This document shows, piece after piece, positions 2,381-57,072 of a stretch of DNA of 64,000 bases. The first letter of the stretch is position 1, and every line of letters begins with the position of its first letter. The DNA comes from an uncultured Clostridia bacterium. GTDB taxonomy: Bacteria; Bacillota; Clostridia; Christensenellales; UBA1242. The stretch is taken from assembly GCA_944372585.1 (NCBI GenBank), contig CALVZQ010000002.1, positions 31,425-95,424 of the forward strand, written 5' to 3'. The notes beneath the pieces were generated by a model. The model did not search any database. It saw nothing but the letters and a program-made list of their open reading frames with translations, and was not told where the DNA came from. The translations under genes and the position numbers were made by a program.

Positions 2381-3664
2381 CTATTCAAGACCTTTGTTCA
2401 ATTCATTAGTTTCAAGCACCTTGCTGCTTGGTTTTTCATTGCTCAAAACTTCACTACTTACAGTGCTTTTGCTGTTTGTGGAAATCTCAAGTTTTTTCTG
2501 CCTCTGCTCAAATCTCTTCAAAAATTCTTGAATTTTTTCCTCTTCAGTCTTTGATGCTGGAGTGGACATTGGAGCAGTTACTTGTTCTGAAATGACTGGT
2601 TCTGGTGTTGGAATCTTCGACGTATTTGCCGTTGAAGATGCCTTTGGAAGTGCAGTGCCAAAACTTGGAACTGTCGCTCCGCCAGGCAATTCAGATTTGA
2701 AGTTTTTAAAGTCATAAACAAATGGTTTAAATTTGGCTCCGCCACCACCTTTGGCTTTTCCCTTGCTTTTTGTTGGCGCAGCTTTTTTTTCCTCTTTCTT
2801 TTCCTGTTTTTTAGGCAATTCTGCAACTTCTGTGACACGAGGAGTTGTCGCTTTGTCTCTGATTCTTTGAATCGGAGTGCTGTAACCCAAAAAGATGGTT
2901 TTTGCTTCTTCGATTTTCAAAAGTTCTGGCAATGCTTTGATCTTTGAAATAACATAGTCCAAAACGATTTTGAGCCTTGTGTTGTCTTGATTTATGCTGG
3001 AATCTGTCTGCATAATTTTTTCTATCATCAATTTGTATTGAAGTTTAAGTTTTTCGCCCAATTCTCCACAACCGTCTAGGAATTTCAACATTCTGACAAG
3101 ATATAATTGTGAAAGAATTTCTGTCAATTCTCTATTGAAGACAAACTCATTCTTTTGACGCAATAAATAATTTTTGATGTATTCATCTTTTTCATAAACT
3201 TCTTCGTCGAAATAAACTTTCCAACGTGAATAGACATTTTCTTTAAATTTTGGAGAATAAACATCAACAAAACTATCCAAATTGGTCACATGTTTGACAT
3301 CTTCTTCAACACCATTTTCAATCTCAATTATGGAAAGATTTGCATTGCAATATGTTTCAGATATGTCAAATTCAATCCTGAAGTTCAAAACCACATCATC
3401 AATTTTGGTCGAAGCATAGACAATATTGTTGTTTTTGTCATCAAACTTTTTTGGAAGAACAATCAATGCCTCCAAAATTTTTGTGTTTGAAATTTTGTAT
3501 GAACCATCAGGAAAAAACTCCCCAAGCAAATTGTTGCGCTGTTTTCGCTGGTATAACAACACATTCAAATATTCATTTTTCACTTTATCCGCATCAATAT
3601 TGCTTGCAACGGTTTTTTGCCCTTCAACGATGCCAAACATTGTTTCTTTTGTCTTCTTTCTCAT
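2381..3664 (-). CDS. hypothetical protein (427 aa): globular N-terminal ~290 aa plus K/E/P/S/T-rich low-complexity C-terminal third
   Basis: Long ORF with no family recognised. The C-terminal region contains PKKQEKKEEKKAAPTKSKGKAKGGGGAKFKP and S/T/P-rich stretches. No Shine-Dalgarno before ATG 3664 (see promoter 3671-3699). Confidence 0.7.
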   Translation of the reverse strand: MRKKTKETMFGIVEGQKTVASNIDADKVKNEYLNVLLYQRKQRNNLLGEFFPDGSYKISNTKILEALIVLPKKFDDKNNNIVYASTKIDDVVLNFRIEFDISETYCNANLSIIEIENGVEEDVKHVTNLDSFVDVYSPKFKENVYSRWKVYFDEEVYEKDEYIKNYLLRQKNEFVFNRELTEILSQLYLVRMLKFLDGCGELGEKLKLQYKLMIEKIMQTDSSINQDNTRLKIVLDYVISKIKALPELLKIEEAKTIFLGYSTPIQRIRDKATTPRVTEVAELPKKQEKKEEKKAAPTKSKGKAKGGGGAKFKPFVYDFKNFKSELPGGATVPSFGTALPKASSTANTSKIPTPEPVISEQVTAPMSTPASKTEEEKIQEFLKRFEQRQKKLEISTNSKSTVSSEVLSNEKPSSKVLETNELNKGLE

Positions 3665-29400: not shown

Positions 29401-32400
29401 GAATATGAATAATGTCTAAGAATGTATTGATAGCTGTTTTTGTAAACAATGCTGACCAATTCATCTGTTTTGGAATAGGCGCCCGAACTTTGAAAGTCAA
29501 TTTCATACAAATAAACAACATTTCTCTCAATCATCTGTCCATCTTCTTCAATTTCTTCAACTTGTTCTTCATATAGATAATATCTTGAAGAATTGTTGTT
29601 AAAGTCATATCTAAAGATTGCTCTTCCAGAATTGATATATTGCCCTTCCGCCACCTCAAAAGAGTCGTATATAGAATTTGAAGTCATAACCCTTTTTTTG
29701 AAATAATCAAATCCAATGTATTGATTCTCGGCATTTGTGTTTACTGATGAAATGTAACTGTTGCGTATGGTGTTTCCTTCTTCATCTTTTTGTTGGTCAT
29801 CAACCATTGATTGCAAAGAAACAAAGGAATTCGATTGAAAGTTAAGCATTGAAACATTGCTCCAACCTGAAACCATTGGCGACAAGCCAAAATAAACACC
29901 TTCACCAACATTTATACTGTTGTTGACTCTTGCTCTTTGAATTATTATATTGATTGAAAAGTCATAACATAAATTGAAGAATTGAACAGTTCTCTGATTT
30001 GTATAAGCAACTTCATTATATACATAGTAGGAACTGTTTGAAGAGCGTTTGAGATTTCCAAAGTTTGTGTCAATATTGTTCAGATATTCTTCTTCATCAA
30101 ATGTCAGTTCTCCGGAGAATGTGTAACCCGTCTTTAATTTTATGCCAAGTTGTATGTAATTATCTACTCTGTCACTATACATTGTGTCAAAGTAGAAGTT
30201 TGCCACATTATTTTCAACAATTGCATATGTTGTTTCGTCATTAACAGCATTTCCTCCAAATGAGAGTGACAAAGTCTCAACAACACTTGCAACGTCCAGT
30301 TTTCCTGCAAAGGTATTTTGGTCTGTGGAAAAATTGAGAGTAAGTTTGAATTTGTCCTCATCATCTTTTTCCAAACCTTCCCATTCGGCATAAAGATTCA
30401 CAAGATAAACGCCTTGATCTGTCAGTTCTGCATCTGCAAATGTGCTGTTGACAAGAATTTCAGACGCGAGCAGCACATCATCATTTCCGCTTACATCTGC
30501 TGAATTTATGATCTGTTCAGAAAATCTTGAATTTTTGTAACTTTGATAAATCCCTTTTATGTCAAAACTGCCATCTCTCAATGGCGCCACTTCCCCATTT
30601 TCATCAACATAATCTGGCACAACAAAGATTTCAGGGTAATCTGAAAGAAAAGAATCATATTTCAAATAGAAAATTTTGTAAACATCGCCATTTGAATCAA
30701 TCTTCACATCAGATGTACTGTGATAATCAATTGACGAGATATCAAAATTGTCTTGCTCATATCTGTTGTAAATCACTTTAACTCGAAAAGCACTGTTTAT
30801 ATCCACCCCATCAGGGTCGTTTGGATCAAATCCATAATTTCTCCAAATAACATCAAAACCAAGCAACGGTTTATAAGAAAAATTTACGTTTAATGTTTTA
30901 ACCTCTTCTGCATCATCTTGCAATGTGTGCAAATTGTATGGATCCTGGCTTGGATTGGAATATGCCGCTCCAGATGTGTCAGAAGAATATTTATAATAAG
31001 ATGCTTTAAATCCCCCATCTTTGATTATCACATCACTTTTTCCGAAAAGGTGAGAAAGTTGAGGCAAAGACAATCCAAAAGTGCTGTCAATGTCGGAAAT
31101 GTCAAGGATGTCACAATTCACAATTCCTGAAACTATTGGTTCACTTCTGTCTAATTCATTTCTAGGCAACAACAAAATTTGATGAACTCCCTTATATGTA
31201 GTCTTGGAAGCATCATAGAATGTTCCCCCATTTCCATTAAGTTCGATGTCATATCCATAATATATTGTCGCTTGATTGCTGGCTGAAGTTGATCTTGTCC
31301 CCGAAAGATCGATGTATCCATAAAATCCATCATTGACAATCAACTGTCCTGTGTAATCAATTGAGTTGGAGCCATAAAAAACATAGATTTTCGCATTTCT
31401 GGCAACTCTTCCAACAGCATACACTTTGCTTCCATCACCCAATGTTCCGCTTGCTTGTCCATAGAGATTGTCAGTGCAGTTGATCAAATATGTATCTCCA
31501 GAGGCATATGCAACAAAAGTTCCAACATAACCTGTGCCAACCTGTCCTTGATTTATGTATCTAACATTTTGAATATTCAAATTTTTGATGACTGCATTGC
31601 TTGTGTTTCCAAACAGACCATGATAACTAAACTGTTCTTGCAAAGAACATGTCATGTTGTAAATTGTGTATCCATTTCCATCAAAAACACCACTGAATGG
31701 ATTTCCCACTCCACCAATTGGTTGCCACGTTCTTCCGATCAGATCAATGTTGTTTTGGAGTGCATAATAAGCCCCTCTTTTGTGATTGAAGGAAACATAT
31801 CCCAAATCTCCAGCCGTTCTGATTAAATATGGTGATTCTGCAGTTCCTTGTCCTTCAAGAACAGAATCATTGCTATATTCATTGTCATTGTTGGCACTTC
31901 CCAATCTGTTGTTTTGGACTAAGTAAGGATATCCTCCATTAACGCTTGATGAGATGCCCCAAATAAGCGATTCAGAAGAAAAGTCCCAACTGTTTGTCGA
32001 TGTCCAATATCTCTCACTGCCATAAAATCCCTCTGTCCTCGCAAGTTGATCCAGATTCACAATCTGGCTTGAGATATCAGAAGAACCAGCAATTTTTTGA
32101 TTTACATCATAATACAAACATGTCGCCGTCGGTGTTCTTGACTCGCTCAAATTGGAATCAAGATAATAAAGATATCTGGCAACACCATTTCCATATGTCT
32201 CATTTGTACTGCAAACATAACTTCCAAATTTAAGACTTCCAATATGAAAACTGTCCGTAAGAGTGGTGTTTGTGGAGCTTGCAGAATTGAAGTATGCAAC
32301 AATTCCACCTAGATATTTCCCATATCCATCGCCGGAACTTCCCCCATCAATATCTCCAACATGGTAAAAGTTATTCACGGAAAAATATTCATTATTGACT

Positions 32401-33386: not shown

Positions 33387-33429
33387 ATCATTCTCCCTTG
33401 ATTTTATGCAACCAAACAAATTCAAAAAT

Positions 33430-33458
33430 ATTATACTAAATTTTCTAGGAGTAAGCAA
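33430..33458 (-). promoter_or_regulatory. sigma-A-type promoter of giant gene 1: TTGCTT-17 nt-TATAAT
   Basis: Revcomp of 33453-33458 is TTGCTT and revcomp of 33430-33435 is TATAAT, with an exact 17-nt spacer. Predicted leader of about 37 nt to ATG 33386. Confidence 0.6.
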
Positions 33459-42276: not shown

Positions 42277-42594
42277 ATGAGAAATTATACCGATAAAGAG
42301 TTGGAAAAAATTGCAAATGAAATTTCAACACGAATTTCCAGAGAAGCAACTGAATATTCTGCTGACAGTTCTGGCATGGGATACATTATTGATCCTCAAA
42401 AGGCAGAAAAAATCATTAATGAATGTTTGAAAGGAAAAATCTTGACCAATGAAGATCAAGATGTTTTGTCTTCCTTGCTAAAATCAAAGACCCAAAGAAA
42501 AACAAGTCTGTCCATGACCGGCTCTGCTCTTTGGAAGATTTTGGGAATATTTGGTTTGTTGGTTCTGATTGTTGCCATTGCAACTGCTTTTTGA
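42277..42594 (+). CDS. small tail-anchored membrane protein (105 aa)
   Basis: Start trimmed to ATG 42277 (AGAGG 5 nt upstream). Soluble N-terminal part, then a single C-terminal TM WKILGIFGLLVLIVAIATAF. Confidence 0.55.
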   Translation: MRNYTDKELEKIANEISTRISREATEYSADSSGMGYIIDPQKAEKIINECLKGKILTNEDQDVLSSLLKSKTQRKTSLSMTGSALWKILGIFGLLVLIVAIATAF

Positions 42595-42597
42595 TTG

Positions 42598-43452
42598 TCA
42601 TTTGGATCTTTTTTTCTTTTTAATTCGCGATATTGCAAGACTCGCCCCAACCCCAAATAAAACTAATAATAATGCAAAAGCATACCAAACTGGACGATTG
42701 GCATAAGTCACCCAAAAAATAATTTGATTATCTTGTTCAATTTCTCTCAGAGTTTTGATGAAAACATTGTGATAAAAATAATCATCTTGATACATGAGTT
42801 GCGATTGCAACCCTTTTTCTTGCGTTGCAAAGTCATAGATGTAAACCGTTTCGTCCAAATTTTTCAAAATTTCTTCTTCTCGAGTGTCAGAAATGTTGTC
42901 ATTATTGCACCAAGAAGAAATTGCCATAACGCAAATCATTTTCAAATCGCCTGCAGATTTTGAAGAAGAAACGGGAAAAGTTGTGGATATTTCCAATTTT
43001 TTGATGAAAAATCCGCTTATCTTTTGTTTTGATGACACACTTTCCTGTTCATCATCTTCTACACCAAAAAATCTTTTCTGCGCTTCCAAATTTTCAAAAT
43101 TGATGGAAAAGCCAATTCCGTCAATGTCAGCAAAATATGCACAAGTTCCAACAGTTGTTCCCTCTGTTTCTCTTTCCCTGTTGCTTTGAGCCAAAGCATT
43201 GACATATGTCGCCAGATAAAATCTGTATGTTTTCACCTCTTCTTCATCAAAACCGAGTGTGGACAAATATGCGGAATTTAGTGGAAAAATATATGACAAA
43301 CCTATTTGTCCAAGGCTGTTTGCTTGTCGCATTATTCTGAACGCATTAGTTTCATAGATTGCCGATTTATCAATCTCAGATGAATTTTTGCAACCACAAA
43401 AACTGAGAAGACTTAAGATCAACAAAAAAAGAGTACAAATTGATTTTTTCAC
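42598..43452 (-). CDS. predicted lipoprotein that also has a C-terminal TM helix and basic tail (284 aa)
   Basis: MKKSICTLFLLILSLLSFCGC lipobox. C-terminus VWYAFALLLVLFGVGASLAISRIKKKKRSK. GTG start with a weak RBS, so the start is uncertain. Lies 50 nt downstream of giant gene 2 with no hairpin between. Confidence 0.7.
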   Translation of the reverse strand: MKKSICTLFLLILSLLSFCGCKNSSEIDKSAIYETNAFRIMRQANSLGQIGLSYIFPLNSAYLSTLGFDEEEVKTYRFYLATYVNALAQSNRERETEGTTVGTCAYFADIDGIGFSINFENLEAQKRFFGVEDDEQESVSSKQKISGFFIKKLEISTTFPVSSSKSAGDLKMICVMAISSWCNNDNISDTREEEILKNLDETVYIYDFATQEKGLQSQLMYQDDYFYHNVFIKTLREIEQDNQIIFWVTYANRPVWYAFALLLVLFGVGASLAISRIKKKKRSK

Positions 43453-43502: not shown

Positions 43503-46500
43503 TTAACTGATGATAGTATCTCCTTGATGCAAATTGCCAGCGCTTATGTTCAATGTTGTTATTGATCCATAGTTGAACACATTGTCGACTTCGCCTTTGC
43601 CATAGTCAGCCACACCGGCAACATAAACAGAAACTTGGTTTTGCGTTTGAGCACATTCGACAGTTATATCAAAATAGTTCGAACAATTTCGAAGTGTCGC
43701 AGAAGAAGAATTTGTGATCACAACTCCTGCAACTTGAATTGTGTTGGTGATTGTGCTTGAAGAATCTATTCTTTGACAAGTGATTTCTATTGAATAATTT
43801 TCATTTGCATCACCGCCAACTTCACAATTTTCAATAGTTGCAAAATTCATGAATGCAATTCCGCTCGCCATGATAACTTGAGATTGGTTTCCGTCATTCA
43901 AAATCATAGATGTTTCAACACTGCTGTTTGAGATATTTGCAACCACACCTTCATTTTTTGAAACCAAACCACTATAGATCATCATAATTCTGATATTCGG
44001 AGCACTGTAACCAACAAAACTGTTGTTGAAGCCTACCAATGTAACATTCTCAATCCTTCCGCTGTTTGTGATTGCAAGTCCAGCCATCAATGAGTGATTT
44101 GGAATGATCACATTGCCAATTCCATATGTGACATCAATGTTCAAATTTCTGACAGATGATTTGTCAGATAATGTTTCAAATAATGCTGTTCCATAATTGA
44201 AAGTTGTTGAGGTTTCTGTGCCAGGTCCAAGAACAAAGCCTTCTGAAACCAAAATTCCTTGACTGAGTCTTGCAACACCACTTGAAATATAGGAAATTGT
44301 GTTTTCGTTGCCTTCAATAATTCCATCAAAATTACCAGAAAAATAAGTGCCTGAAATATAACTTGACTCATCTCCATTTTCGCTTAGAACAATGTTTGTC
44401 TGCAAAGAGAAATAATATTGTTCTTCTTCCACAACCTCAATGCCATTTTCTGTGTAATTGATAAGATTTTCATCTTTAGACATACGTTTTTCCAAATTTC
44501 TGAATTGTTCATTATTGACAATTACGTATGGAGATTCGGCTGTTCCGCTTCCACTTTCAAACAAATCAAAAGAAACAAAATCAGTCAAATCATCATTTGT
44601 GAAAACAAGTTCTTTTGATTGAATGTTTGAATTTCCAAGCTTTATGCTGACCTTCAACCTCACTTGATCTGAAATTATTGTTGGAGTGAAAGTTGCCTCT
44701 GTTGTCACATAAGTTCTTTCAATTTGATTCGGTTCAGAACCATATGTCACTTCAACAATGTAAACGGGCTCAACTATTGCTGAGGTGTCAACAAGATATA
44801 AAGCAACATTCCCTATTTGAATTAGAGTTTTTTCTCCTTCATTTGAAATTATCCTAAACAGAGTGCTCATTCCAAATGTTTCCTCTTCTTCAACAACTCT
44901 CTGAGTCTGATAACTGTCCAAACTTATATAATATGTTTCACCTTGATAGAAAATCTGGGCACTCTCCTCTGTCACCGATTCAACAACAATCTCGTCACCG
45001 CCTCTCAATGTGATGTCAGAGGATTCTTGAAGAGAAGAATCAACATAGAGAATTGTGTTAGCAACCAAAACATCAACTTCTCTGACTTTTTCTGCCACAG
45101 TTGTGCTCTTAAATGAATATTGTCCTGTGTATTGCCAAGAGAATGTTTGAGTTTCTTCATTCCAAACAATCTCACTGTCTTCACCCCAATTTGAACGTTG
45201 AAGAACAAACTCCTCGCTCAAATCGCTGTAAAGGACATTTGTGCTTGAAAAATTCTTGACTTCAAACAAAAGTTGTGCAGTTTGATCTTCGGATATGACT
45301 ATATATTCTGTGACATATTCTTCTGGATATGATGCAATCAAATCAACATCTTCTGCATCTCTGAGAACATACAATCGATATTGCTCTCGTGTGAAAGTTA
45401 TTGTTTTTTCGTCTATGACATCACTTCCACTCAAAACTTTGATTTCTGCAACTATGTTGTTGGAATTTTGATCCAAGAAATAATTCTCAAAATCCAGTGT
45501 CTCAAGGTTTCCATCTGAAGTTATTATGAAATCATCGGAGGTTACTGTGCCAAGTTTCAAGATTTCAACTGTCCTTCCAAACGATTTAATCATCAAATCA
45601 TCGTTGTTGGATCCTTGTGTCACATAAACATGCAACACATGCTGTCCCTCTGGCAAAGCGCCTGGATCTTCTGTGAATTTGATTCTAAACACACTTGTTG
45701 ACGTTTCAGCATCAACACTGAATGTGTCAATTGCAAAAGAACCAGAAACTTCCTTTCCATTGCTGTCTGTCACAACGAATGAATATTGCTCAAAGAATGT
45801 TGTGTCTGTAACACTTGAATTTGTTGTATATGACCAATAGAGAGAACCATCGACAATTTCAAACGATTCTGTGTCAATTGGTTCAAATCGATCAATACTT
45901 CTTAAAATTGCGCCATTACCCATCAAAACATAAGTGTCCGTTCCTTCGTATTGAACATTTCCATATGCATATCCACCTTCAACCAGTGAAACATATTGTC
46001 CTGATGGCAAACGATCTGTGACGACAAGCGCCAAGGCTTGAACTGTGGCTTTGAGATATGTTTTTTCATCTGTCGCAACAATTTGATCTTCATTTATTAT
46101 TGCAAAATCAAATGAATTGTTTGTTGTGTAATAATAATATTCACTGCCAACATTGGTTTCCGTTTCTCCATCTTCATCGGTGTTTGAAATCCTGTATTGA
46201 ACCACAGTAATTTTGTAAACCACGTCAACATTTCCAGTTTCAGGTACAGCAAGAGCAAAATCTCCAGACTTTCCTGTCACTTCATTCCACTTCAAAACAC
46301 TGTTCTCAATTGTCACATTTTGCACCGAGTCAAGCATTGAAGCATTGATATTTGCCACTCCACTTCTCAAAGCGATGCTTTTGCTGGTAGATTCTCCAGT
46401 TGAAACATCTTTGCAATATATGTGATTCAAATAATACAAGCTTAAATCGGCTTCAATATTGAGCCCTGCGGTCGAACCCAGACTTGCAACATGAAATTCT

Positions 46501-49500
46501 CTTGCAGCTTCTTCAGTGTTCTTGTAAAAATAATCTGGATTTGTTAGGTCAATTCCTGTTATTCCTGCCTCATAATACAAAAGTTGCGTTGCACTGTTTG
46601 CATCTGAGAATTTGATATTGACGGTCTCGTCTGTGTTGTAAAGAATGTAGTTGTACAGATTTCCATCTGAATAACAATTTCGTAGTGATTGATCTGTTGA
46701 ACTGTCAACTCCCAACATTCCAATATTGGCAGAATCATCAATGGCAATGTAACCTAACGTATTGGACAAAGTTGGTGTTGCAAGCTTATAGACATTGGAA
46801 ACTTGATAAATCTCGCTGTCAACAAAAATTGAGTTTGTTCTGACTTCTCCAAATAATACGAATTTGATATAGTCATAAAGTCCATAACCAAGACCATCAA
46901 GTGAAAATTTTGAATTTACCATATTTCCGTCAATTTCTTCAATTTCTGGTTCTGAACTTGTGTTTTTCTTGTAGATCACAGTTGTTTTTCTGTTGTTTAC
47001 AGAACCCCAAACAAATTCGCCTTCAACAAGCGAGAAGGTGTCATTAAATCCAAGTAATGTCAGGCTGAAAAACTCTGACTTGCTTGATGTTGAAAAATTT
47101 GTTCCAACTGCATATATTTGCATTTTGTATGTCTTTCCCGAACCAATCTCATCTCCAAAGCGCCCCATGATTGAGTCTCCGTTGTTTTGGTTGAGATAAA
47201 CCATCAAATAATCTCCACCAGAAATCAATTGTCCGGAAGAATCGGTTTCATAAACACTGACAGAACCTGGAACATCGCCTCCAACATAAGTCAAATTCCA
47301 ATTTGAAATCCCTTTTGAAATTGCAAAGACGTATTTGTTGTCGGCATCGTCATAGATCTTCAAATTGTAACTTTCTGCTTCCTTTGAAACATAGGCATTT
47401 TCCAAATAATCATGTATTTGACTTTTCTTAATCAGAAGTTGATATGAGTTTATTGAAATATCGTTGACATTTTCAACCTTAAAAGCTTTTACTATCGGTT
47501 CGCCATTGACATACAAAACGTTTTCTCCGTTGTCATTTGCAAATGTGTACCAAGAAGAATTCAATGTCTTAACATTTCCCAACAGACAATACTCCACTTT
47601 ATAACTTCCCATTTGCACAGATTCAAACAAATCATCAAAAAGTGTCTGTGAGTTTGCTATTCCAAAACTTCCATTTTCAACAACCAATTCTCTAAATCTT
47701 GAAATGACGTCTTGCACTGCGGACGAACCTGCATTTGCATATATGTCGTCCAATCTGGTTAAAACATCAAATCCTTGATCTTGCTCTGCAGCAAAATCAA
47801 TCAAACTTGACAGCAAGTAAATTGCATTGATATCAAAAGATTTTCTGATTCCTTCCGTACCACTTTCCAAAGAAGTAAACCTTATCCTCAGATAAATATT
47901 ATTGTTAACCAAATCTTGCACTGTGAATGTGAATGGACTTGTAAACACAGTGTTCATGAATCCTTCAACAATTTGGGAGTAATCTCCATCTCCTGTGAGA
48001 AGTTTGTAGAAATCTCCTTCAGCATTCCAATCAAAATAAAGTTTTCCATCTTTCAATTTTAGAGGCGTATTTATTTGGTTTTTATAAACCAAAACTGGCT
48101 CATAACTCTGTTCATCAACAATGAATGACCTTATTGATGACAACAAAAATGGATCTTCCGCAATGCCTTGCACTGCCAAATAATATGAATTTTCCGTTCC
48201 AACAAACTCTGATGCATTGAAATATGTATTGGTGGTGGCAAAATAATTGTATTTTTCTCCAAGTTGATCTCCATTCAAATCTTGAATGAAATAAACATAA
48301 TATTTTGTTGTTTTTTCTCCGTTGGCAGACCAATACAAATCTCCTGCCGACAAGTTTAAAAATCTAACCGCTGGCAATCTTTCAAATTCAAAAACCTTGT
48401 CATTGCTTGCAGACAACCAATCGGAAAGCACAAATTTGTGCAAATTATTCTCACCAGAAGCGGAAATTTCCACTTGTAGCTTTGCAAATTCCACAAGGAA
48501 GATTCCTGTTAAGTTTTTCAAATCTTCTTGTTCAAAAATTTCTGTCAAGTTTACAGAGAAAACCTTTTCATTATAAAAATAATCATGTCCTGTTATTTGT
48601 TCTTTTGTCAAAAATTTGATAGTTGAAAAAGATTCTCCGATGTCATTTTCTTCTCCTTCCTCTGTTTGCAATTGAGTGACTCTGACGAAAAATCCCAACG
48701 TTTGCAAACTTCCTTCAACATCAGTGTCATTGAATATTGCAAATGTGTTTACATAATCCTCAGGGAATACTGAATCTTCACCAAGATCGCCAACTTTTTT
48801 GACTTCAACAAATTGAGTTTCTGTGACATAACTGAACGTGAAAGTATAAGGTTTTGAAACAACATAACTTCCAGATATGTTTGTTGTCTCTCTGTATGAC
48901 CAAAAATAAATGTTGAAATTTGAATTGATATTCAAATCATATCCAGCTTCTTCAAATAAGCCGATCAAATTAATAAAAGAATATGCATAGACAACTCTCA
49001 TATCTTCATCAGCTGTCGTCGCTTGGGTAGGCACAAAACTTACCACATCTTCGGTCAAAATTGCGTCTTCAGTTAAACCTGCGAAAAGACTGGTGAAACT
49101 GTTTGGAGTCATTGTGAAAGCCAAACTTGAAGGCAACAATTCATGATATCCAACTTCATATATTTCATCATTAACAACGAATGTCAAATCATTTCCAACT
49201 GTCGTTGTTGCCACTGAATCCAAAACAAAAATGTAATCCGCCGAAGAAGCTGGCTCTTCAATTGCACTGCCCACAGCAATGATCTCAACATTAAACAAAG
49301 TCCCAGTTGCGACTATGCTTGAAGAATCCAACCTTGTTGTGCCTGCAGTTGCCTCAACAACTTTCCAAGTTTGCAATTCTGATGATCCTGAAGCATCAAC
49401 AAATCTATAAATATATGTAGTTCCAACTTGACTTGCAAAAACAATGCTGCCAAAAGTATCAACCATTATGTCCGTTGTTTGAATCCCATTTCCCTTGATT

Positions 49501-52500
49501 GTTCCATTAAATTCAAAAGCAAGAGAATTGTTGAGCCCACTTCCTCCAACTGTGACTATTTCAAAAACCACATTAATGTCGGACAGTAAGTCAAATGCCG
49601 TCAATTTTCCATAAGCAAGCAAATCTTGATATCCTTCTCCAAAAATTTCTGACACAGAATATGAAATTTTCCCATCAACTGGTGTCATCTGAGATCCTGC
49701 AGACGCATGATATGCAACAGAGTCAAAACTGTAAAGCAAATTTGTTCTGTCAACATCTGATTGTGCATAGACATTCAAGATATATCCAGTGGCATTTGAA
49801 ACTTCGTCCCAAGACAAAATGACTTTTGACATGTCGTCAACATCTCTTTCCATTGTCACAGTCTTTATGCTGTCGATTCTGTTAAGACCAAAATTTATGA
49901 CGTTTGCAACAGAATTGACATAGCCATTTTCAGTTGCATAGATTGTTAAGTCATAATTTCCATTGGTCCAACTATTTGGAAACACAAAATAAAATTTCCC
50001 ATTTTCTGCAGACACTTCAAATCTTGAATCACCATACTCTACGACATAAATTGTTGACAAATTATTAATAGAAGAGTCAATTGTGAAACCTCCAGATTCT
50101 TTTGTCACGGTCTCCACTTGATTTAGAACATTGTAGGTGTTTCCCTCAAAAATGATTGGAGGCGCAAGATAATAAAGTTTATTTGTGTCGTCAGCATAAT
50201 TGTTGATGAAACCAGAAACCTTAATAGATCCGCCATTTGCAAGATTTTGACTGAAGAAATCAGACATATCGTATGTCACTTGTGCTGAAATTTCCCCGAC
50301 AGGAACTTGCAAATATTCAGTCTTGATTTCTCCACCATTCTCTTGATATGTCACTTGCAAAACAACTCCGCCTGCCGTCCTATCGAGAAACTCTGGATCA
50401 AATTTGATTATCAAATTTTGATTATGTTTTTCTCCCACAGCTTCAAAATCCAAACCTTGAAGATCAACTGTTCTTTGAATGTCCACACTTCCTTCAGATG
50501 ATGGAATGTCAATTGAGCTCAGTGCCATGATTTTGACGGTCATTTCCCCACCCAAAGCAATGCTGTTGTTATAATTTTCTCTAGTCAAAGTGAAGGTATA
50601 TTTTTCATCAATCAATGATATATTACTTGTCAAAACTGGAGTGTCGTTGTCGTTTATGTAGATGCTAAATGTTCCTGAATTCCCATAATTCCCAACAAAA
50701 GAGATTTGAATGTTTGGAAATTGTGCATTTGCCAATTCGTCATAAACAAATTCCACACCAACAACTTCTGGCGTTGTAAGTTTTTTTATTGTTCCGTCAG
50801 TTGAATACAACCAGTGATTGTTTTCAATCTCTCCATTAAGCAGTTCGACATCAAGAGCATAATAAATTGTTCCACCCGCATAAACCGTATAACTATCCAA
50901 ATAAGCCGACACTTCAACTTCAATGTCTCCAGCCCTTAAACTTGAAATGCTTTCATACAGATTTGTATTCGTTGTCAAATTAACACTTGTGTCTTGCGTT
51001 TTGTGAATCACATTTTTTCCATCAAGATCCTTGAAAATGACGATATAATTTAGACTTTCAATTCCTGTGTTCTGTCCAAACCTTTCCCATGAGAAAACAT
51101 TGTTTGCGAATGTCACAGCTATGTTTGTTGGTTTGATAGTTTCCATTTCTGCCAACGTCCAAGTTGCAGAAGGACTGTCGATATAGAAAATTGTCGAATT
51201 TTGATTTTGAACTTTTTTCCCAACAACTTTCAAAGTGTAGTCACCACTTCCAGAAATAGCAATTTCTCCAGTCGTATTTTCTGTGGTTGAAGACGATGTT
51301 TTGACTTCCACATAATCACAAAAATCTCTTTCTGAAGTGCTGATTTCATAACTTAAATTTGCTTCTGTCGTCAAAGTTAATTGTGACAAGGCTTTCAATT
51401 TGTAAATTGATATTATGTTTGAGTTGTCAGATTCCAAATAATAGGGATTTGAAACTTTAACATAAAAATTGTAATATGTCGAATCCTCAAAACTTGAACT
51501 TGACATACTGTAAGAGAATGTCCCGACCAATTCAGATCCATATTCAACGTCGTCCATATAAATTTGATAAGCCGTTTCAGAAGCCACCAATGCATTTGTG
51601 TCTATCTCTTCCCAAGATAAAGTATAATCTGTTGCAGAATATGAAAATGACAGTTGTGTTGCCAGCATTTTCTCCACAACCAATTCCGTCTTTCCAGCGT
51701 CTCCATATATGGTTGCGTTTGGAGAAGACAATATCATTCCAGAACCATCTATCAAAGTTTGGTATGCATAAAGCGAAAACGTTATATCTGTAACCTGATT
51801 GTAAATTCCTGAAATTTGTTCGTTTGTTTTTATGATGTCTATAAGTGCACTCAATTTGATTTCAAAATTGTTGCCAGAATTTGAAATAAAATTTGCTTTA
51901 GGACCAAGTTGAACACTTATATTATTATAAACAACAGAAACCGTTTGATCAAATTTCACACTAATTAGAATGTCACCAATTGGGGTTGAACAACCCAGAT
52001 CCAAAACATAGTATTTTGACCCAGATGATGCCACATGTTCAAAAGTGAAACTTCCATCATAATATCTCAGATTGTTTGGCGCTTGAAGACGAGAAAAATT
52101 AAGAGTCGTTTCTGTGCTGTCCAAATAAACCTTTCCATTTACATCATGATAAATTCCTTCATTGTCCTCATCAGTGCCATACAATTTCATAACAAGAGCA
52201 AAATTGTTTAGATCTGAAATATTCAACACTGGGTATTCTCCATTTGTTTTGTCACTAAATTTGTTGTCGCTCTCCCAAATTCTGCCCCCTGTGGCCCCTT
52301 CTCTTTCTTTGATAGTCACAGTTGTTGTCAATTCATCAACAACCAAATCTTCATAGGCAACAGTTGCCAATCTTTCAATAGATAAGATTGTAGGATTGCT
52401 TTCAACATAGATCGTTTCATCTTGAGCATGTCCGACAATTGAAAGTTCCACAGCAGTTCCCCCAAGTGAAAAATCTTCAGAAAGCAAGTATATGTTGAAA

Positions 52501-54767
52501 TCTCCGTCAGAGATTTCAAAGAAATCACTGTGAGAGCTTCCAACTGTCAATTCATAACTGTCAATATTTTCAGCATTTGCAACTTTAACAAAATAACCAG
52601 AACTTGCTGTGAAACCGCTATGATTCAAATAATCAGCATCATAACCAAACTGAACTGTTCCATTGACAAGTTGTTCTGCAATGTAAAAAACTTCTTCCAA
52701 ACAGTCTATTGAGGAGATGAATTCGTTTGCATTATTTGAGACTGCAAACACTTTCACATAATAATATCCCACTTTTGAAAAAGTGTAACTTGCATCAACT
52801 GTGTTTTCTTCTTGTTTAGAAAGCCCTTCAACATCAATTGATATTTCTTCTTGATTGGATTCATATGTATCTTTGTCAATTTCATAAATTTCCAATCTGT
52901 AACCGTCCGCATTATCTACAGAATTCCAAGTGTAAGTTTTAACTGTCGAATTTCCACTGTCAGCAGAAGTTGGAGCAGAAAGAAGCGTCAATGTCTTCGT
53001 CAAAGAAGAGTTGATTGCCAGTTTGTCATCGTCAGTTTTTGCAACAACTTTAAATTGATAAACTTCAATGCCCTCATATGCACTTGCTTCAAACAAAGAT
53101 TCAATTTTGTCAACAAATTTGAAAGAAACACTGCTTTCCACTGTCTCCAGCAAATATTTTTCTGCATCAACAATTTCAAAGTCAACACCATTGTAAAGAT
53201 ATAAATCATAGTTTGTGGCATTTTCAACTGCTTCAAATGTCAAAACTGATTTTTCTTCCACATAACTGTGTGTTATTCCCGATTCAACATCAAAAGCAGA
53301 AACTTTAACAACATTCAACTGAGTGCTTGCATCAGAATTGATCACATACACATCTTCTCCAGCAATTTGATTGCTGTCAGATCTTGCGGCGTTATAAGCC
53401 GACAGATCATATTTCCCTGATTGAAGGATCTCAACTGAAATGTTCTTGGAAACTTCATCAACAGACAGTCCTTCAACAACAACATTGTTTCCAAGTCCGA
53501 GAATCAAAACATTGCTTTCAATCAAACTTTGAGTCGTTGTAACTTGAGCTTTGAATGTTGTTCCATCGATTTCATTATCTCCAATACCTACAAAAGCCAA
53601 TGCCGGCATCTTGTAAATTTTTCCAAGTGCAAAAGCATCACTCGCATAAAACAAACCACTTTCATTAATTGCCGAAACACCAACCTCATAAACACCAGAA
53701 GCAAGTCCATTCAAATTTGTTTTGATGTCCGTTCCAGAATTTTCAAAACTTATTGTCGAACTGTCATCTGTTTCAACACTTTTCAAAACAATTTGATATT
53801 TTTGAACCTGAGAGTCCGATTTTATTTCAAGAAGTCCACCTTCATTTGCTGAAAAAACATAGTTTGCAGTTGGAACATCAAGCTTGACAATTTCCAACTC
53901 TTCGCTTTCCATAGCAATTTTTTGTTCTGCATCATCATAAACCAAAACAGAAACTGAATGTAAACCTGCATTTGCAGAATAAAAATAATCTGACAAATCT
54001 TTTGTTGTCGATGTTTGAAAATCGTCAAGAAGAATGTTGTCCATCTTAACTTTATATTTCGCACCAGCAATTGCACTCCAAGACAGAGTCCCTTCGACAG
54101 AATTCCAGTTCAAATTTTCTTCGGTCAACTTGTCCATATATCCATAATACAAAGTTTGCACTTGTGAGTCCATGCTGTCGTCAAAATAGCCAGTCCCTTG
54201 AGCAGAAACAGTCAGACTGTAAACCCCATATTCAGTCAACTGAAAACTGTTTGTCGAAACAGTTTCGTTGATTGACACAATCTTATCGACAGTTTCTGGC
54301 TCATTTGCCAAGTACGTAGTGCGAGTTCCTTCCACAACATAACTTTGAGCAATGGTTGGTGTCTCTTCATTCTCAAAATATCCAAAAACACTTCCCCACG
54401 ACAATAGTCCCGTCTCGCTTAACGAAAAATCTGTGGGTGCAGAAAATTTTTTCTTAACAACAATCTGCATTGAAGCCAAATTGTTGTTTTGATATGTAGC
54501 ATAGACAAAAGTCTTTCCAGAATTTTGAGCAGTTGCCACCCTTCCATTCAACTCGACAATTGACGGATTTGAGAATCTGTATGAAATTTCATTTGTGTCC
54601 ACGCCAACAACATTCAAATAGTTATCCAAAGAAATATCATCTCCCAATAAAACAACGATTTCATTTTGGGAAAATGAAGCCTCTGCTTTTTTTAATGAGC
54701 ATGCCATAAGAACACTACTCAACAAAATAGTCATAATTGACATCAACACAATGCTAAATTTTTTCAT
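43503..54767 (-). CDS. giant predicted lipoprotein (3,754 aa): Big_2-like, many FN3-like modules, C-terminal GLUG-like beta-helix head
   Basis: Uninterrupted 11.3-kb ORF. ATG 54767 has GAGAGG 8 nt upstream. MKKFSIVLMSIMTILLSSVLMACS carries the lipobox LMAC. No C-terminal anchor. Confidence 0.9.
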   Translation of the reverse strand: MKKFSIVLMSIMTILLSSVLMACSLKKAEASFSQNEIVVLLGDDISLDNYLNVVGVDTNEISYRFSNPSIVELNGRVATAQNSGKTFVYATYQNNNLASMQIVVKKKFSAPTDFSLSETGLLSWGSVFGYFENEETPTIAQSYVVEGTRTTYLANEPETVDKIVSINETVSTNSFQLTEYGVYSLTVSAQGTGYFDDSMDSQVQTLYYGYMDKLTEENLNWNSVEGTLSWSAIAGAKYKVKMDNILLDDFQTSTTKDLSDYFYSANAGLHSVSVLVYDDAEQKIAMESEELEIVKLDVPTANYVFSANEGGLLEIKSDSQVQKYQIVLKSVETDDSSTISFENSGTDIKTNLNGLASGVYEVGVSAINESGLFYASDAFALGKIYKMPALAFVGIGDNEIDGTTFKAQVTTTQSLIESNVLILGLGNNVVVEGLSVDEVSKNISVEILQSGKYDLSAYNAARSDSNQIAGEDVYVINSDASTQLNVVKVSAFDVESGITHSYVEEKSVLTFEAVENATNYDLYLYNGVDFEIVDAEKYLLETVESSVSFKFVDKIESLFEASAYEGIEVYQFKVVAKTDDDKLAINSSLTKTLTLLSAPTSADSGNSTVKTYTWNSVDNADGYRLEIYEIDKDTYESNQEEISIDVEGLSKQEENTVDASYTFSKVGYYYVKVFAVSNNANEFISSIDCLEEVFYIAEQLVNGTVQFGYDADYLNHSGFTASSGYFVKVANAENIDSYELTVGSSHSDFFEISDGDFNIYLLSEDFSLGGTAVELSIVGHAQDETIYVESNPTILSIERLATVAYEDLVVDELTTTVTIKEREGATGGRIWESDNKFSDKTNGEYPVLNISDLNNFALVMKLYGTDEDNEGIYHDVNGKVYLDSTETTLNFSRLQAPNNLRYYDGSFTFEHVASSGSKYYVLDLGCSTPIGDILISVKFDQTVSVVYNNISVQLGPKANFISNSGNNFEIKLSALIDIIKTNEQISGIYNQVTDITFSLYAYQTLIDGSGMILSSPNATIYGDAGKTELVVEKMLATQLSFSYSATDYTLSWEEIDTNALVASETAYQIYMDDVEYGSELVGTFSYSMSSSSFEDSTYYNFYVKVSNPYYLESDNSNIISIYKLKALSQLTLTTEANLSYEISTSERDFCDYVEVKTSSSTTENTTGEIAISGSGDYTLKVVGKKVQNQNSTIFYIDSPSATWTLAEMETIKPTNIAVTFANNVFSWERFGQNTGIESLNYIVIFKDLDGKNVIHKTQDTSVNLTTNTNLYESISSLRAGDIEVEVSAYLDSYTVYAGGTIYYALDVELLNGEIENNHWLYSTDGTIKKLTTPEVVGVEFVYDELANAQFPNIQISFVGNYGNSGTFSIYINDNDTPVLTSNISLIDEKYTFTLTRENYNNSIALGGEMTVKIMALSSIDIPSSEGSVDIQRTVDLQGLDFEAVGEKHNQNLIIKFDPEFLDRTAGGVVLQVTYQENGGEIKTEYLQVPVGEISAQVTYDMSDFFSQNLANGGSIKVSGFINNYADDTNKLYYLAPPIIFEGNTYNVLNQVETVTKESGGFTIDSSINNLSTIYVVEYGDSRFEVSAENGKFYFVFPNSWTNGNYDLTIYATENGYVNSVANVINFGLNRIDSIKTVTMERDVDDMSKVILSWDEVSNATGYILNVYAQSDVDRTNLLYSFDSVAYHASAGSQMTPVDGKISYSVSEIFGEGYQDLLAYGKLTAFDLLSDINVVFEIVTVGGSGLNNSLAFEFNGTIKGNGIQTTDIMVDTFGSIVFASQVGTTYIYRFVDASGSSELQTWKVVEATAGTTRLDSSSIVATGTLFNVEIIAVGSAIEEPASSADYIFVLDSVATTTVGNDLTFVVNDEIYEVGYHELLPSSLAFTMTPNSFTSLFAGLTEDAILTEDVVSFVPTQATTADEDMRVVYAYSFINLIGLFEEAGYDLNINSNFNIYFWSYRETTNISGSYVVSKPYTFTFSYVTETQFVEVKKVGDLGEDSVFPEDYVNTFAIFNDTDVEGSLQTLGFFVRVTQLQTEEGEENDIGESFSTIKFLTKEQITGHDYFYNEKVFSVNLTEIFEQEDLKNLTGIFLVEFAKLQVEISASGENNLHKFVLSDWLSASNDKVFEFERLPAVRFLNLSAGDLYWSANGEKTTKYYVYFIQDLNGDQLGEKYNYFATTNTYFNASEFVGTENSYYLAVQGIAEDPFLLSSIRSFIVDEQSYEPVLVYKNQINTPLKLKDGKLYFDWNAEGDFYKLLTGDGDYSQIVEGFMNTVFTSPFTFTVQDLVNNNIYLRIRFTSLESGTEGIRKSFDINAIYLLSSLIDFAAEQDQGFDVLTRLDDIYANAGSSAVQDVISRFRELVVENGSFGIANSQTLFDDLFESVQMGSYKVEYCLLGNVKTLNSSWYTFANDNGENVLYVNGEPIVKAFKVENVNDISINSYQLLIKKSQIHDYLENAYVSKEAESYNLKIYDDADNKYVFAISKGISNWNLTYVGGDVPGSVSVYETDSSGQLISGGDYLMVYLNQNNGDSIMGRFGDEIGSGKTYKMQIYAVGTNFSTSSKSEFFSLTLLGFNDTFSLVEGEFVWGSVNNRKTTVIYKKNTSSEPEIEEIDGNMVNSKFSLDGLGYGLYDYIKFVLFGEVRTNSIFVDSEIYQVSNVYKLATPTLSNTLGYIAIDDSANIGMLGVDSSTDQSLRNCYSDGNLYNYILYNTDETVNIKFSDANSATQLLYYEAGITGIDLTNPDYFYKNTEEAAREFHVASLGSTAGLNIEADLSLYYLNHIYCKDVSTGESTSKSIALRSGVANINASMLDSVQNVTIENSVLKWNEVTGKSGDFALAVPETGNVDVVYKITVVQYRISNTDEDGETETNVGSEYYYYTTNNSFDFAIINEDQIVATDEKTYLKATVQALALVVTDRLPSGQYVSLVEGGYAYGNVQYEGTDTYVLMGNGAILRSIDRFEPIDTESFEIVDGSLYWSYTTNSSVTDTTFFEQYSFVVTDSNGKEVSGSFAIDTFSVDAETSTSVFRIKFTEDPGALPEGQHVLHVYVTQGSNNDDLMIKSFGRTVEILKLGTVTSDDFIITSDGNLETLDFENYFLDQNSNNIVAEIKVLSGSDVIDEKTITFTREQYRLYVLRDAEDVDLIASYPEEYVTEYIVISEDQTAQLLFEVKNFSSTNVLYSDLSEEFVLQRSNWGEDSEIVWNEETQTFSWQYTGQYSFKSTTVAEKVREVDVLVANTILYVDSSLQESSDITLRGGDEIVVESVTEESAQIFYQGETYYISLDSYQTQRVVEEEETFGMSTLFRIISNEGEKTLIQIGNVALYLVDTSAIVEPVYIVEVTYGSEPNQIERTYVTTEATFTPTIISDQVRLKVSIKLGNSNIQSKELVFTNDDLTDFVSFDLFESGSGTAESPYVIVNNEQFRNLEKRMSKDENLINYTENGIEVVEEEQYYFSLQTNIVLSENGDESSYISGTYFSGNFDGIIEGNENTISYISSGVARLSQGILVSEGFVLGPGTETSTTFNYGTALFETLSDKSSVRNLNIDVTYGIGNVIIPNHSLMAGLAITNSGRIENVTLVGFNNSFVGYSAPNIRIMMIYSGLVSKNEGVVANISNSSVETSMILNDGNQSQVIMASGIAFMNFATIENCEVGGDANENYSIEITCQRIDSSSTITNTIQVAGVVITNSSSATLRNCSNYFDITVECAQTQNQVSVYVAGVADYGKGEVDNVFNYGSITTLNISAGNLHQGDTIIS
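43506..44560 (-). other. C-terminal head of giant protein 2: G-S-G-T-A-E-S-P-Y module plus about 5 GLUG-like beta-helix turns
   Basis: GSGTAESPYVIVNNEQFRNL...YFSGNFDGIIEGNENTISYI, then MAGLAITNSGRIENV, YSGLVSKNEGVVANI, ASGIAFMNFATIENC, VAGVVITNSSSATLRNC, VAGVADYGKGEVDNV. Confidence 0.6.
45100..54440 (-). other. stalk of at least 10 divergent FN3-like modules
   Basis: Recurrent L-x-W-x-x-V/I...A-x-x-Y-x-V signature: GLLSWGSV, GTLSWSAIAGAKYKVKM, YTWNSVDNADGYRLEIY, YTLSWEEID...AYQIYM, NVFSWERFG, VILSWDEVSNATGYILNVY, GDLYWSANG...YYVYF, GEFVWGSV, SVLKWNEVTG, QTFSWQYTG. Boundaries approximate. Confidence 0.5.
54453..54680 (-). other. Big_2-like (bacterial Ig-like group 2) module of giant protein 2
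   Basis: FSQNEIVVLLGDDISLDNYLNVVGVDTNEISYRFSNPSIVELNGRVATAQNSGKTFVYATYQNN fits the Big_2 pattern (x-V-x-x-G...S-S-N-x-x-V-A-x-V-x-x-x-G-x-V-T-A-x-x-x-G-x-A-x-I-x-A). Confidence 0.55.
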
Positions 54768-54820
54768 ATAGAAAACCTCTCTAAAATTTTCTCTGCCGTT
54801 AGTCTATCTAAATCAAAATT

Positions 54821-54850
54821 ATTTTACCACTTATCAACAAAATTTATCAA
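54821..54850 (-). promoter_or_regulatory. candidate promoter of giant gene 2: TTGATA-18 nt-(TGG)TAAAAT
   Basis: Revcomp of 54845-54850 is TTGATA and revcomp of 54821-54826 is TAAAAT, with a TGn extended -10. Predicted leader of about 46 nt. Confidence 0.5.
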
Positions 54851-55032: not shown

Positions 55033-55094
55033 AAAAAATGCATCAAAAATTCAATATTTTTTATTTTTTTAATTATTTTTTTGCATTTTTTATT
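55033..55094. repeat. imperfect AT-rich inverted repeat. Its right arm (55074-55094) is identical over 21 nt to 33660-33680 and likewise straddles a stop codon
   Basis: 55074-55094 TATTTTTTTGCATTTTTTATT equals 33660-33680. The left arm AAAAAATGCATCAAAAAT (55033-55050) pairs with it at 2 mismatches. Confidence 0.65.
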
Positions 55095-55560
55095 CTATTA
55101 AATTATTTTTGAAATAATTTTCTTTCAAAATTCTCAAGCTCACTTTTTTATTTTCCAAAACAATTTTAAGTTTCTCTCTGATGATTTTGTTTTCAATTTT
55201 GGCAATCATGCTTTTGACTTCAATCACATTGATTTCCAACAGTTCAATATCATACAAGAAGATTTTGTCAAAATTTTTGACATAGTCAACATTATATCCT
55301 GACAAAAATTTTCTGGAACTGGAATAAAATTTGTTATCACCACCCATTCTCAACAAAAGTTCACAAAGAATGGTGCAGTTTTCCAGTTCGTTCTCGTACA
55401 ACGTTTTGAAACATTCACTGTATTGATTTGCAAAAATCACACTCTGATTAAATTGATAAAAAAAGTGCATAAAGGCAGAAAAACAACCTTTTGCACCAGC
55501 ATAGAAATTCTGAATCAGCCCTTCATAATATGAGTTTACTTTCAAAAAAGGTTCTTTCAT
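55090..55560 (-). CDS. hypothetical all-helical protein (156 aa), possibly a degenerate ferritin-like four-helix bundle
   Basis: LIQNFYAGAKGCFSAFMHFFYQ and YENELENCTILCELLLRMGG loosely resemble ferritin-like/CotJC-type helices. The E-x-x-H metal motifs are absent (only one His in the protein), so the product call is weak. Confidence 0.55.
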   Translation of the reverse strand: MKEPFLKVNSYYEGLIQNFYAGAKGCFSAFMHFFYQFNQSVIFANQYSECFKTLYENELENCTILCELLLRMGGDNKFYSSSRKFLSGYNVDYVKNFDKIFLYDIELLEINVIEVKSMIAKIENKIIREKLKIVLENKKVSLRILKENYFKNNLIE

Positions 55561-56464: not shown

Positions 56465-56713
56465 ATGGAAAATATTTGCATAGAGGACAGAAAAAAGATA
56501 ACAATAAATGGCGCAACAAAAGTTTTGTCATCAACCAGCACTCAAGCTGTTGTTGAAGTTGGAGATTGCAATATTGTCATCTCTGGAACAAATATAGAAG
56601 TCACAAAGCTTGACTTAGACAACAAAGAAGTGATATTTTCTGGAAACATAAACTCAATTAAATACACGACCAAACAAGAAAAAACAAATTTGATTAAAAG
56701 GTTGTTCAAATAA
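56465..56713 (+). CDS. yabP: sporulation protein YabP
   Basis: 82-aa protein with the YabP-like pattern ITINGATKVLSSTSTQAVVEV...ISGTNIEVTKLDLDNKEV. AAGGAGA RBS. Followed by yabQ with a 1-nt overlap. Confidence 0.8.
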   Translation: MENICIEDRKKITINGATKVLSSTSTQAVVEVGDCNIVISGTNIEVTKLDLDNKEVIFSGNINSIKYTTKQEKTNLIKRLFK

Positions 56714-57072
56714 TGTTATACGAATCTTTGTCACAACCAATAATATTTTTATTTCTTTGTTTAAGTGGGTTTTTCAGCGGATTTTTGTTTGATTTAAAAA
56801 ATATTTTATCCATTTATTTTAAGCAAAATAAAATAGTTTCACAAATTTTATTATTTTTTGCAGTTTTTTTGACATTTTTTATGTATTTTTTCACAAATTT
56901 AAAAATTAATTATGGAGAATTTAGATTTTTTTCAATAATCGCTTTTGCAATTTCTTTGCTTTTGCAAAGATTTATAGTCAAAAATTTTCTTGCCAAACCA
57001 TTGATAAAGTGTTACAATAAATTCAAGGAAAAACACAATGGAAGAAAAACAAAAATGGTGGAAAAAACTTAG
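56713..57072 (+). CDS. yabQ: spore cortex biosynthesis protein YabQ-like membrane protein
   Basis: Three hydrophobic helices, size and position directly after yabP (ATG overlaps the yabP stop, TAATG). Confidence 0.7.
   Translation: MLYESLSQPIIFLFLCLSGFFSGFLFDLKNILSIYFKQNKIVSQILLFFAVFLTFFMYFFTNLKINYGEFRFFSIIAFAISLLLQRFIVKNFLAKPLIKCYNKFKEKHNGRKTKMVEKT

Follow-up and report, generated by a model that had tools for sequence, protein, structure and literature searches.

A giant predicted lipoprotein with a fibronectin type III-like stalk and a C-terminal beta-helix head at a housekeeping locus of uncultured Clostridia

In this study, we analysed a giant gene in a 64,000-nucleotide (nt) stretch of DNA, hereafter the window, from an uncultured Clostridia bacterium of the order Christensenellales (assembly GCA_944372585.1, contig CALVZQ010000002.1, positions 31,425 to 95,424). 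The gene lies at positions 43503..54767 of the minus strand and forms a single 3,754-codon frame of 11,265 nt, with an ATG start and no internal stop. The encoded protein has 3,754 amino acids (aa), and its mature form would have a mass of approximately 413 kDa and a pI of 4.1. The G+C content of the gene is approximately 35-36%, and both G+C content and GC skew are the same as those of the flanks. On the 3′ side, the giant gene is followed by genes for a 284-aa protein, TypA/BipA, DnaB, and gltX-like and trpS-like synthetases. On the 5′ side, it is preceded by genes for a 156-aa helical protein, an RluA-type pseudouridine synthase, YabQ, CvpA, and pyruvate formate-lyase with its activase. The housekeeping surroundings given in a preliminary description of this DNA, with typA and a small membrane protein gene downstream and the helical protein and RluA genes upstream, were thus recovered.

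DNA of the giant gene is present in chicken-gut metagenomes of several studies. A 10,016-nt contig from one run (X1) is identical to the window, and contigs from runs of two other studies (X5 and X7) tile the gene with differences that are substitutions. The sole insertion or deletion among these independent contigs is a 1-nt insertion in one contig at 2.9x depth, which we regard as an assembly error. An apparent joint in run X4 ('skips 1025') was disregarded, as the contig behind it comes from a different organism and matches in stretches of 20-27 nt. No credible frameshift was found in X1, X5 or X7, and the frame is intact in the X1 contig and in the syntenic orthologues described below, so that the uninterrupted 11,265-nt open reading frame (ORF) reported previously also holds in independent assemblies. 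The X5 and X7 substitutions concentrate at window positions 52115-54447 (aa ~107-884), where they number up to 34 per 1,009 nt, and the longest X5 and X7 contigs listed for 44.8-51.1 kb have zero differences. Recombination over a tract of the gene, or diversifying selection, may account for the cluster in this membrane-proximal quarter.

Scanning a single genome for each GTDB species yielded four relatives of the giant protein in metagenome-assembled genomes (MAGs) of uncultured Clostridia and Catabacter, with identities of 75, 75, 66, and 31%. Where the contig permits, each is one unbroken frame, of 3,557-3,746 aa, and the gene order around them is rluA, a 156-aa gene, the giant gene, a gene of ~284 aa, typA, and dnaB. 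Intact syntenic orthologues occur on five other Clostridia MAG contigs, making six loci with the window, and include those at L001 (3,746 aa), L003 (3,746 aa), L004 (3,557 aa), and L005 (3,985 aa). The L005 protein (P0041) is the most distant full-length member, and its gene is located between rluA and a gene of ~288 aa, followed by typA and dnaB. The typA-rluA locus of related genomes therefore contains the giant gene down to 31% identity. This shared locus indicates clade-wide vertical inheritance, with the gene being neither an assembly artefact nor part of a mobile island. The giant gene is a vertically inherited gene of the whole clade.

When aa 2801-3754 were searched exhaustively with HMMER against 1.84 billion cluster representatives, 52 proteins were returned. 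Approximately 40 of these are 3,450-4,040 aa long, align to the extreme C-terminus, and have an identical end-to-end architecture. The named records of the family are all 'hypothetical protein [Clostridia bacterium]', and an exact look-up of the giant protein sequence returned zero records. Pfam found nothing above threshold in ten overlapping 500-aa tiles of the giant protein, where only faint Ig-like hints appeared, or in 13 diverse full-length relatives, and NCBIfam found nothing above threshold on the tiles. Literature searches on GLUG and beta-helix proteins and on giant lipoprotein adhesins in Firmicutes or Christensenellales retrieved no paper on this family. The giant protein represents an unannotated, clade-specific family that is not recognised by the standard domain databases.

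The N-terminus, MKKFSIVLMSIMTILLSSVLMAC^SLKK, comprises a signal peptide (aa 1-22; 54702..54767, minus strand) with a basic MKK n-region and a 17-residue hydrophobic core, and a lipobox, L20-M21-A22-C23 (54699..54710, minus strand), giving the layout MKK / FSIVLMSIMTILLSSV / L-M-A-C23. MKKFSIVLMSIMTILLSSVLMAC fits a PROSITE PS51257-type rule and the Gram-positive G+LPP lipobox pattern, both of which were hand-coded. It also has the features by which we defined a lipoprotein signal, namely a charged n-region, a hydrophobic h-region, and the sequence [LVI]-[ASTVIM]-[GAS]-C with the Cys within the first ~35 residues. The syntenic orthologues keep the lipobox Cys (LMAC, LVAC, or LSAC), C23 is at least 90% conserved in a 13-sequence alignment, and the +1 Cys is found in essentially all correctly started full-length members, the exceptions being visibly mis-called starts. 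The residues around it vary (L-[MSAVT]-[AGS]-C). Retention of the Cys among variable neighbours is a mark of selection on the Cys itself. The signal peptide is the only strongly hydrophobic stretch of the protein; no transmembrane-like segment follows past residue 40, the C-terminus (...NLHQGDTIIS) has no hydrophobic tail, and no LPXTG-like motif ([LIS]Px[TSA][GANS]) is present anywhere in the giant protein. Both earlier statements about the anchoring, a lipoprotein signal with the lipobox LMAC and no C-terminal anchor, agree with these results. Judging from these sequence features, the giant protein is most likely lipid-tethered to the cell membrane at its N-terminus.

The first module after the signal is a putative Big_2-like Ig domain at aa ~37-105 (54453..54659, minus strand). 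Its assignment stands at the family level: Pfam Big_2 matches 13 of 31 orthologous N-termini at E≤1 (best 1.3e-5), and the family N-terminal profile matches the Big_2-type segment of PDB 7quz over residues 37-107 with an E-value of 8.5e-5. It does not stand for the window protein by itself, in whose sequence Pfam finds no Big_2 match.

The stalk extends over aa 106-3329 (44781..54452, minus strand) and was delineated by a sequence motif, by profile links and, for aa 1601-3329, by AlphaFold2 and Foldseek. From the boundary spacing and the secondary-structure strings, we estimate that it contains ~30 beta-sandwich domains. Tryptophan is scarce in the giant protein (0.6%), and the conserved tryptophans of an LxW motif are located at aa 124, 230, 614, 1052, 1227, 1653, 2146, 2247, 2587, 2827, 2978, and 3211. 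These residues are retained in the 31%-identical orthologue. Comparison by hhalign of 108-aa segments around the LxW sites linked 10 of the 12 modules with probabilities of 64-94%, and in a sliding-window control, the head and the mid-protein alpha/beta domain gave at most 10% to the fibronectin type III (FN3)-like modules. Two regions, aa 1284-1524 and 1674-2034, have no profile link to the LxW type, and the latter is beta-sandwich-like in the AlphaFold2 model despite lacking this link.

The best-supported FN3 module is aa 1636-1745 (LSWDEVSNATGYILNVY; 49533..49862, minus strand). Its 31-sequence profile matches human fibronectin (5m0a) over the whole domain with an E-value of 7.5e-4 and the Fn3 domain of HCF-1 (4go6) with an E-value of 4.7e-3. 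Pfam fn3 was never significant: it gave no match at E≤1 in ten tiles of the giant protein and none at E≤0.01 in the 13 full-length relatives, and two of the 31 copies of this module matched at E 0.044, short of the gathering threshold. AlphaFold2 models built from the family alignment have a mean predicted local distance difference test (pLDDT) value of 91.0 and a predicted template modelling (pTM) score of 0.70 for aa 2801-3754, and values of 84.5 and 0.55 for aa 1601-2800. Both models are nearly all beta. Foldseek searches of the PDB with both models returned FN3-domain chains at E-values of 5.5e-13 to 1e-3, including the leptin receptor (5.5e-13), fibronectin Fn7B89 (1.6e-9), gp130, the IL-12/23 receptors, contactin FN1-FN3, and Tie2 FNIII. 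The LxW motifs, the hhalign links, the 5m0a match, and the two models together support at least ten mutually related FN3-like stalk modules with the signature 'LxW...A..Y.V', as the preliminary description had proposed for at least ten very divergent modules. The tile-wise scan with hidden Markov models was empty above threshold, and the support for these modules comes from the motif, remote profiles, and structure prediction.

Inside the otherwise all-beta stalk, the AlphaFold2 model and the family conservation delimit an orphan alpha/beta domain at aa 2236-2425 (47493..48062, minus strand), for which the model is confident and shows 8-9 helices. Few stretches outside the head are as well conserved, and it contains the motifs PFTF..DL and LFD..FE.LQ.G.Y.LEYCLLG..TLNS.WY. 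Its profile found no relative in PDB sequences or Pfam. The Cys in 'EYCLLG' (Cys2394) is the majority residue, yet it lies outside the invariant or ≥90%-conserved columns. A thioester/alpha-2-macroglobulin reading of this Cys and of the C5 and ECAM fold matches described below was rejected on the grounds of this level of conservation, the absence of a CxEQ motif, and a template modelling score (TM-score) of ~0.1 for these matches. Immediately ahead of the head, small beta domains form an insert (aa ~3215-3330; 44778..45125, minus strand). The insert is all-beta in the model and lacking in the 31%-identical orthologue of L004 (91 gap columns), and by eye its domains may be SH3-like.

The C-terminal head (aa 3330-3754; 43506..44780, minus strand) comprises a neck, a cap motif, and approximately seven beta-helix rungs that reach the C-terminus. 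The neck is a small conserved beta element (aa 3330-3395), and the cap reads LFESGSGTAESPYVI ... YYFSLQTNIVL ... FSGNFDG. The rungs carry a recurring G-[LIV]-[AV]-x-x-N-x-G-x-[IV]-x-N pattern with turns at aa 3563, 3600, 3636, and 3681, and the G and N columns of these turns are invariant across the family. In the model, short strands recur every ~35 aa and pLDDT values are mostly 90-98, with values of 78-86 in a few 10-residue blocks. The head as modelled has a beta-helix fold. Foldseek matched the model of aa 2801-3754 to the S. pneumoniae IgA1 protease (6xja_P) with an E-value of 5.2e-4 over 490 columns and a probability of 1.00. The family profile matched PDB 3n6z ('putative IgA1 protease') at the cap motif (E 0.048), and the form G-x-G-T-x-x-x-P-Y-x-I is common to the two. 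A phmmer search of the head against PDB sequences found nothing.

Pfam GLUG has no match on the window head at E≤1. The head is homologous to a smaller protein, P0052 (pairwise E 2e-22), in which residues 486-510 form a true motif of the Pfam GLUG family (PF07581; 24.3 bits, cut-off 20.5) that is aligned to the turn at aa 3678-3702 of the window protein (VAGVVITNSSSATLRNCSNYFDITV; 43662..43736, minus strand). The earlier description of the head as GLUG-like is thus supported through the P0052 alignment and the 6xja_P match, but not by a Pfam match on the window itself. P0052 is one of a few proteins of 500-1,000 aa (P0048-P0053) that share only the neck and the beta-helix head with the giant family, which suggests that the head is a portable module used beyond this family. 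P0050 has a hint of an N-terminal HTH_3 domain.

The likeness to the IgA1 protease concerns its N-terminal domain, which consists of a small subdomain and a short beta-helix (PMC7695701), the same order as in the window head. The beta-helix domain of the protease contacts the Fab of its substrate IgA1 and gates the active site (PMC7695701). The giant protein, unlike the protease, has no M26 protease domain, and HExxH is absent from it and from every full-length relative. A protease (M26) reading of the head was rejected on account of this missing motif. No peptidase or other enzyme family was found by Pfam in the window protein and 13 relatives or by NCBIfam on the tiles. The lack of HExxH and of an enzyme family suggests that the head is a non-catalytic-looking beta-helix of a protein-binding type.

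A 284-aa gene (42598..43452, minus strand) lies 50 nt 3′ of the giant gene and is adjacent to it in all six loci, with gaps of 37-53 nt; where NCBI locus tags are present, they number it next to the giant gene. This partner has an N-terminal lipoprotein-type signal (LSFCGC, with the Cys of F-x-G-C conserved), an extracytoplasmic domain, and a C-terminal transmembrane helix with a Lys-rich tail. It belongs to no Pfam family, and each of the 98 relatives in the database is an unnamed protein from a Clostridia MAG. With 42-58% identity for most matches, it is better conserved than the giant protein. No terminator-like site is present between the two genes, and a terminator-like hairpin, identified by a consensus match only, lies 3′ of the partner gene (42439..42462, minus strand). 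By this arrangement, the two genes appear to form a single functional unit and probably share a transcript. A Shine-Dalgarno-like GAGAGG (54776..54781, minus strand) was read from the sequence 8 nt 5′ of the giant-gene ATG. Approximately 55 nt 5′ of the ATG, within an AT-rich 320-nt spacer, there is a promoter-like TTGATA-18 nt-TAAAAT site with a TG extension (10/12; 54821..54850, minus strand), which is also a consensus match only.

The fibrillar or 'periscope' adhesins of Gram-positive bacteria include SasG/Aap, the Rib/alpha-like proteins, and Ebh. The giant protein resembles them in being a very long chain in which a tandem Ig/FN3-like beta-sandwich stalk presents a distant functional domain, and in being acidic and Cys-poor with a Sec signal. 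It differs in polarity, which is reversed relative to their C-terminal LPXTG-sortase or transmembrane anchor and N-terminal tip, and in its modules, which are all highly divergent whereas periscope repeats are usually near-identical. Eukaryotic FN3 chains, such as fibronectin, the cytokine-receptor ectodomains, and the contactins, have the same fold, a seven-strand beta-sandwich, and the same bead-on-a-string layout, a likeness at the level of fold and remote profile that implies no common function. E. coli ECAM, a bacterial alpha-2-macroglobulin and a lipoprotein, also has a lipoprotein signal. ECAM and complement C3/C5 have a long run of FN3-like MG domains that was matched by Foldseek (E ~1e-8), but the TM-score is ~0.1, and the giant protein showed neither a CxEQ thioester motif nor a bait region or receptor-binding domain. 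We treated these as generic bead-chain matches. The known kind is the fibrillar adhesin, and what is new is an unannotated family with an unusual, predicted N-terminal lipid anchor.

We propose that the giant protein of this Christensenellales/Catabacter-like MAG is probably an adhesin in the form of a surface fibre, lipid-anchored at its N-terminus and tipped by the C-terminal beta-helix. The protein would be exported by the Sec pathway. Lgt would then modify Cys23 with diacylglycerol and signal peptidase II would remove the signal, leaving the N-terminus tethered in the outer leaflet of the cytoplasmic membrane. The Big_2-like domain and the ~30 FN3/Ig-like beads would form the stalk. An FN3 domain measures ~3.5-4 nm. 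A stalk of this many domains would be on the order of 100 nm long, enough to cross the wall and project far outward. The free C-terminal neck and short right-handed beta-helix would most probably serve as the ligand-binding tip, with host, dietary, or microbial surfaces as possible ligands. The 284-aa partner, probably co-transcribed, would act with the giant protein at its membrane-proximal end. The analysis establishes the intact frame, the family, its synteny, the conserved lipobox, and the domain folds; lipidation, an extended form, exposure at the surface, ligand binding, and the operon are inferred from these. A more far-reaching version, which we offer as a doubtful though conceivable extension, is that two genes, those of the giant lipoprotein and its bitopic partner, encode an envelope apparatus that defines the clade, with an inverted-polarity fibre of ~100 nm. 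The domain at aa 2236-2425 would then be a second functional site, acting as a hinge, a ligand pocket, or a site at which the partner or an adjacent fibre docks, and the protein-binding head might recognise host immunoglobulin or mucus glycoproteins.

Several observations weigh against the lipid-anchored adhesin. The Met at lipobox position -2 is uncommon, and lgt and lsp are not among the Pfam-scanned ORFs of the window, no genome-wide search for them having been made. No RNA run is among the runs listed for the giant gene. In the stalk, the AlphaFold2 models cover aa 1601-3754, and aa 106-1600 are assigned by profile links only. The Foldseek TM-scores of the models are low (~0.1-0.2), as expected when flexible bead-chains are superposed rigidly, and they speak for the type of domain, not for the shape of the whole. 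An adhesin model also gives no account of the conserved orphan domain (aa 2236-2425). Finally, the head lacks hypervariability and the gene is vertically inherited at a core locus, features that fit a structural envelope role and a host adhesin equally well. In the structural role, the giant protein and its bitopic partner would be core components of the clade's envelope, for instance as a fibrillar outer layer, an inter-cell tether, or a ruler for cell-cell spacing, with the head binding a self-made polymer or another copy of the giant protein on neighbouring cells. The same housekeeping locus, rluA ... typA-dnaB, at 75% to 31% identity points to vertical inheritance, unlike typical variable adhesin islands, and the partner is always adjacent. 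The head is also not extra-divergent among the syntenic orthologues, with 71-78% identity compared with 63-86% elsewhere in the protein. The protein, however, has no Pfam likeness to S-layer, SLH, or wall-binding modules, and we consider a structural role, the main rival to the adhesin, unlikely, even though the architecture alone cannot separate it from an adhesin.

The likelihood falls further, in this order, for the remaining explanations: an enzyme on a stalk, a shed matrix protein, and a phage remnant. Right-handed beta-helices scaffold pectate lyases, polygalacturonases, and phage depolymerases. The beta-helix of the giant protein might accordingly be a catalytic domain, either a polysaccharide lyase or hydrolase or a protease, held off the cell by the stalk, and the weak matches in a viral fold library include tail proteins and one 'hydrolase'. 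We judge this improbable: the enzyme-family scans and the HExxH search described above were negative, the helix is short at approximately seven rungs, and the N-terminal beta-helix of the best solved-structure match, 6xja_P, is non-catalytic (PMC7695701). The atypical Met at lipobox position -2 would also suit a protein that is secreted after signal peptidase I cleavage, or released as a lipoprotein, to become a fibre of the matrix or biofilm. Large acidic repeat proteins are common in biofilm matrices. The conservation of the +1 Cys amid variable neighbours would be difficult to account for if the Cys had no role, which leaves this a slim prospect. An origin as the remnant of a receptor-binding protein of a phage or mobile element has FN3-bearing phage tail proteins among the weak structural matches in its favour. 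In the viral fold library, only generic FN3 tail-protein matches were obtained, and in six loci the gene is flanked on either side by housekeeping genes, with integrase and phage genes absent. The base composition is like that of the surroundings and a lipoprotein signal is present; a phage origin, rejected on gene context, is scarcely credible.

The guts of animals and humans commonly harbour uncultured Christensenellales-like Clostridia. To our knowledge, nothing is known about how they hold onto surfaces or each other. The present genome devotes 11 kb to the giant gene alone, and the intactness of this gene at one housekeeping locus down to ~31% identity suggests that it is important to how the organism lives. 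The protein also belongs to 'dark' protein space, with ~3,700 residues lacking a Pfam or NCBIfam domain, which the family alignment and structure prediction resolve into FN3/Ig beads and a beta-helix. The architecture itself is not very surprising to a specialist; what sets the protein apart from a routine adhesin is its reversed anchoring, a small partner gene that is obligatory, and the orphan domain in mid-stalk. For ligand screens, aa 3330-3754 offer a defined head module that can be expressed.

The window encodes another giant protein, giant ORF 1 (14466-33458, minus strand; 18,993 nt, 6,330 aa), which has a C-terminal transmembrane anchor with a basic tail and no lipobox. The two giant ORFs occupy 47.3% of the 64,000 nt on recalculation, matching the 47 percent given originally. 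The cap motif occurs in giant ORF 1 as GQGTAESPYLI...FSGVFDG at aa 536 and as GRGTSGDPYQI...FNGHFNF near the C-terminus. Homology between the two giant ORFs was rejected, as only this beta-helix cap motif is common to them (E 0.11).

The 156-aa gene between rluA and the giant gene (55090-55560, minus strand) encodes an all-helical protein without a Pfam match. It is kept at the locus in L001, L003, and L004 and is missing there in the distant L005. A yabQ gene is located at 56713-57072 (plus strand) of the window, and both YabQ and YabP are encoded in L005 (4247-4848). YabQ and YabP are sporulation-associated, and this uncultured clade may therefore form endospores or have descended from endospore formers.

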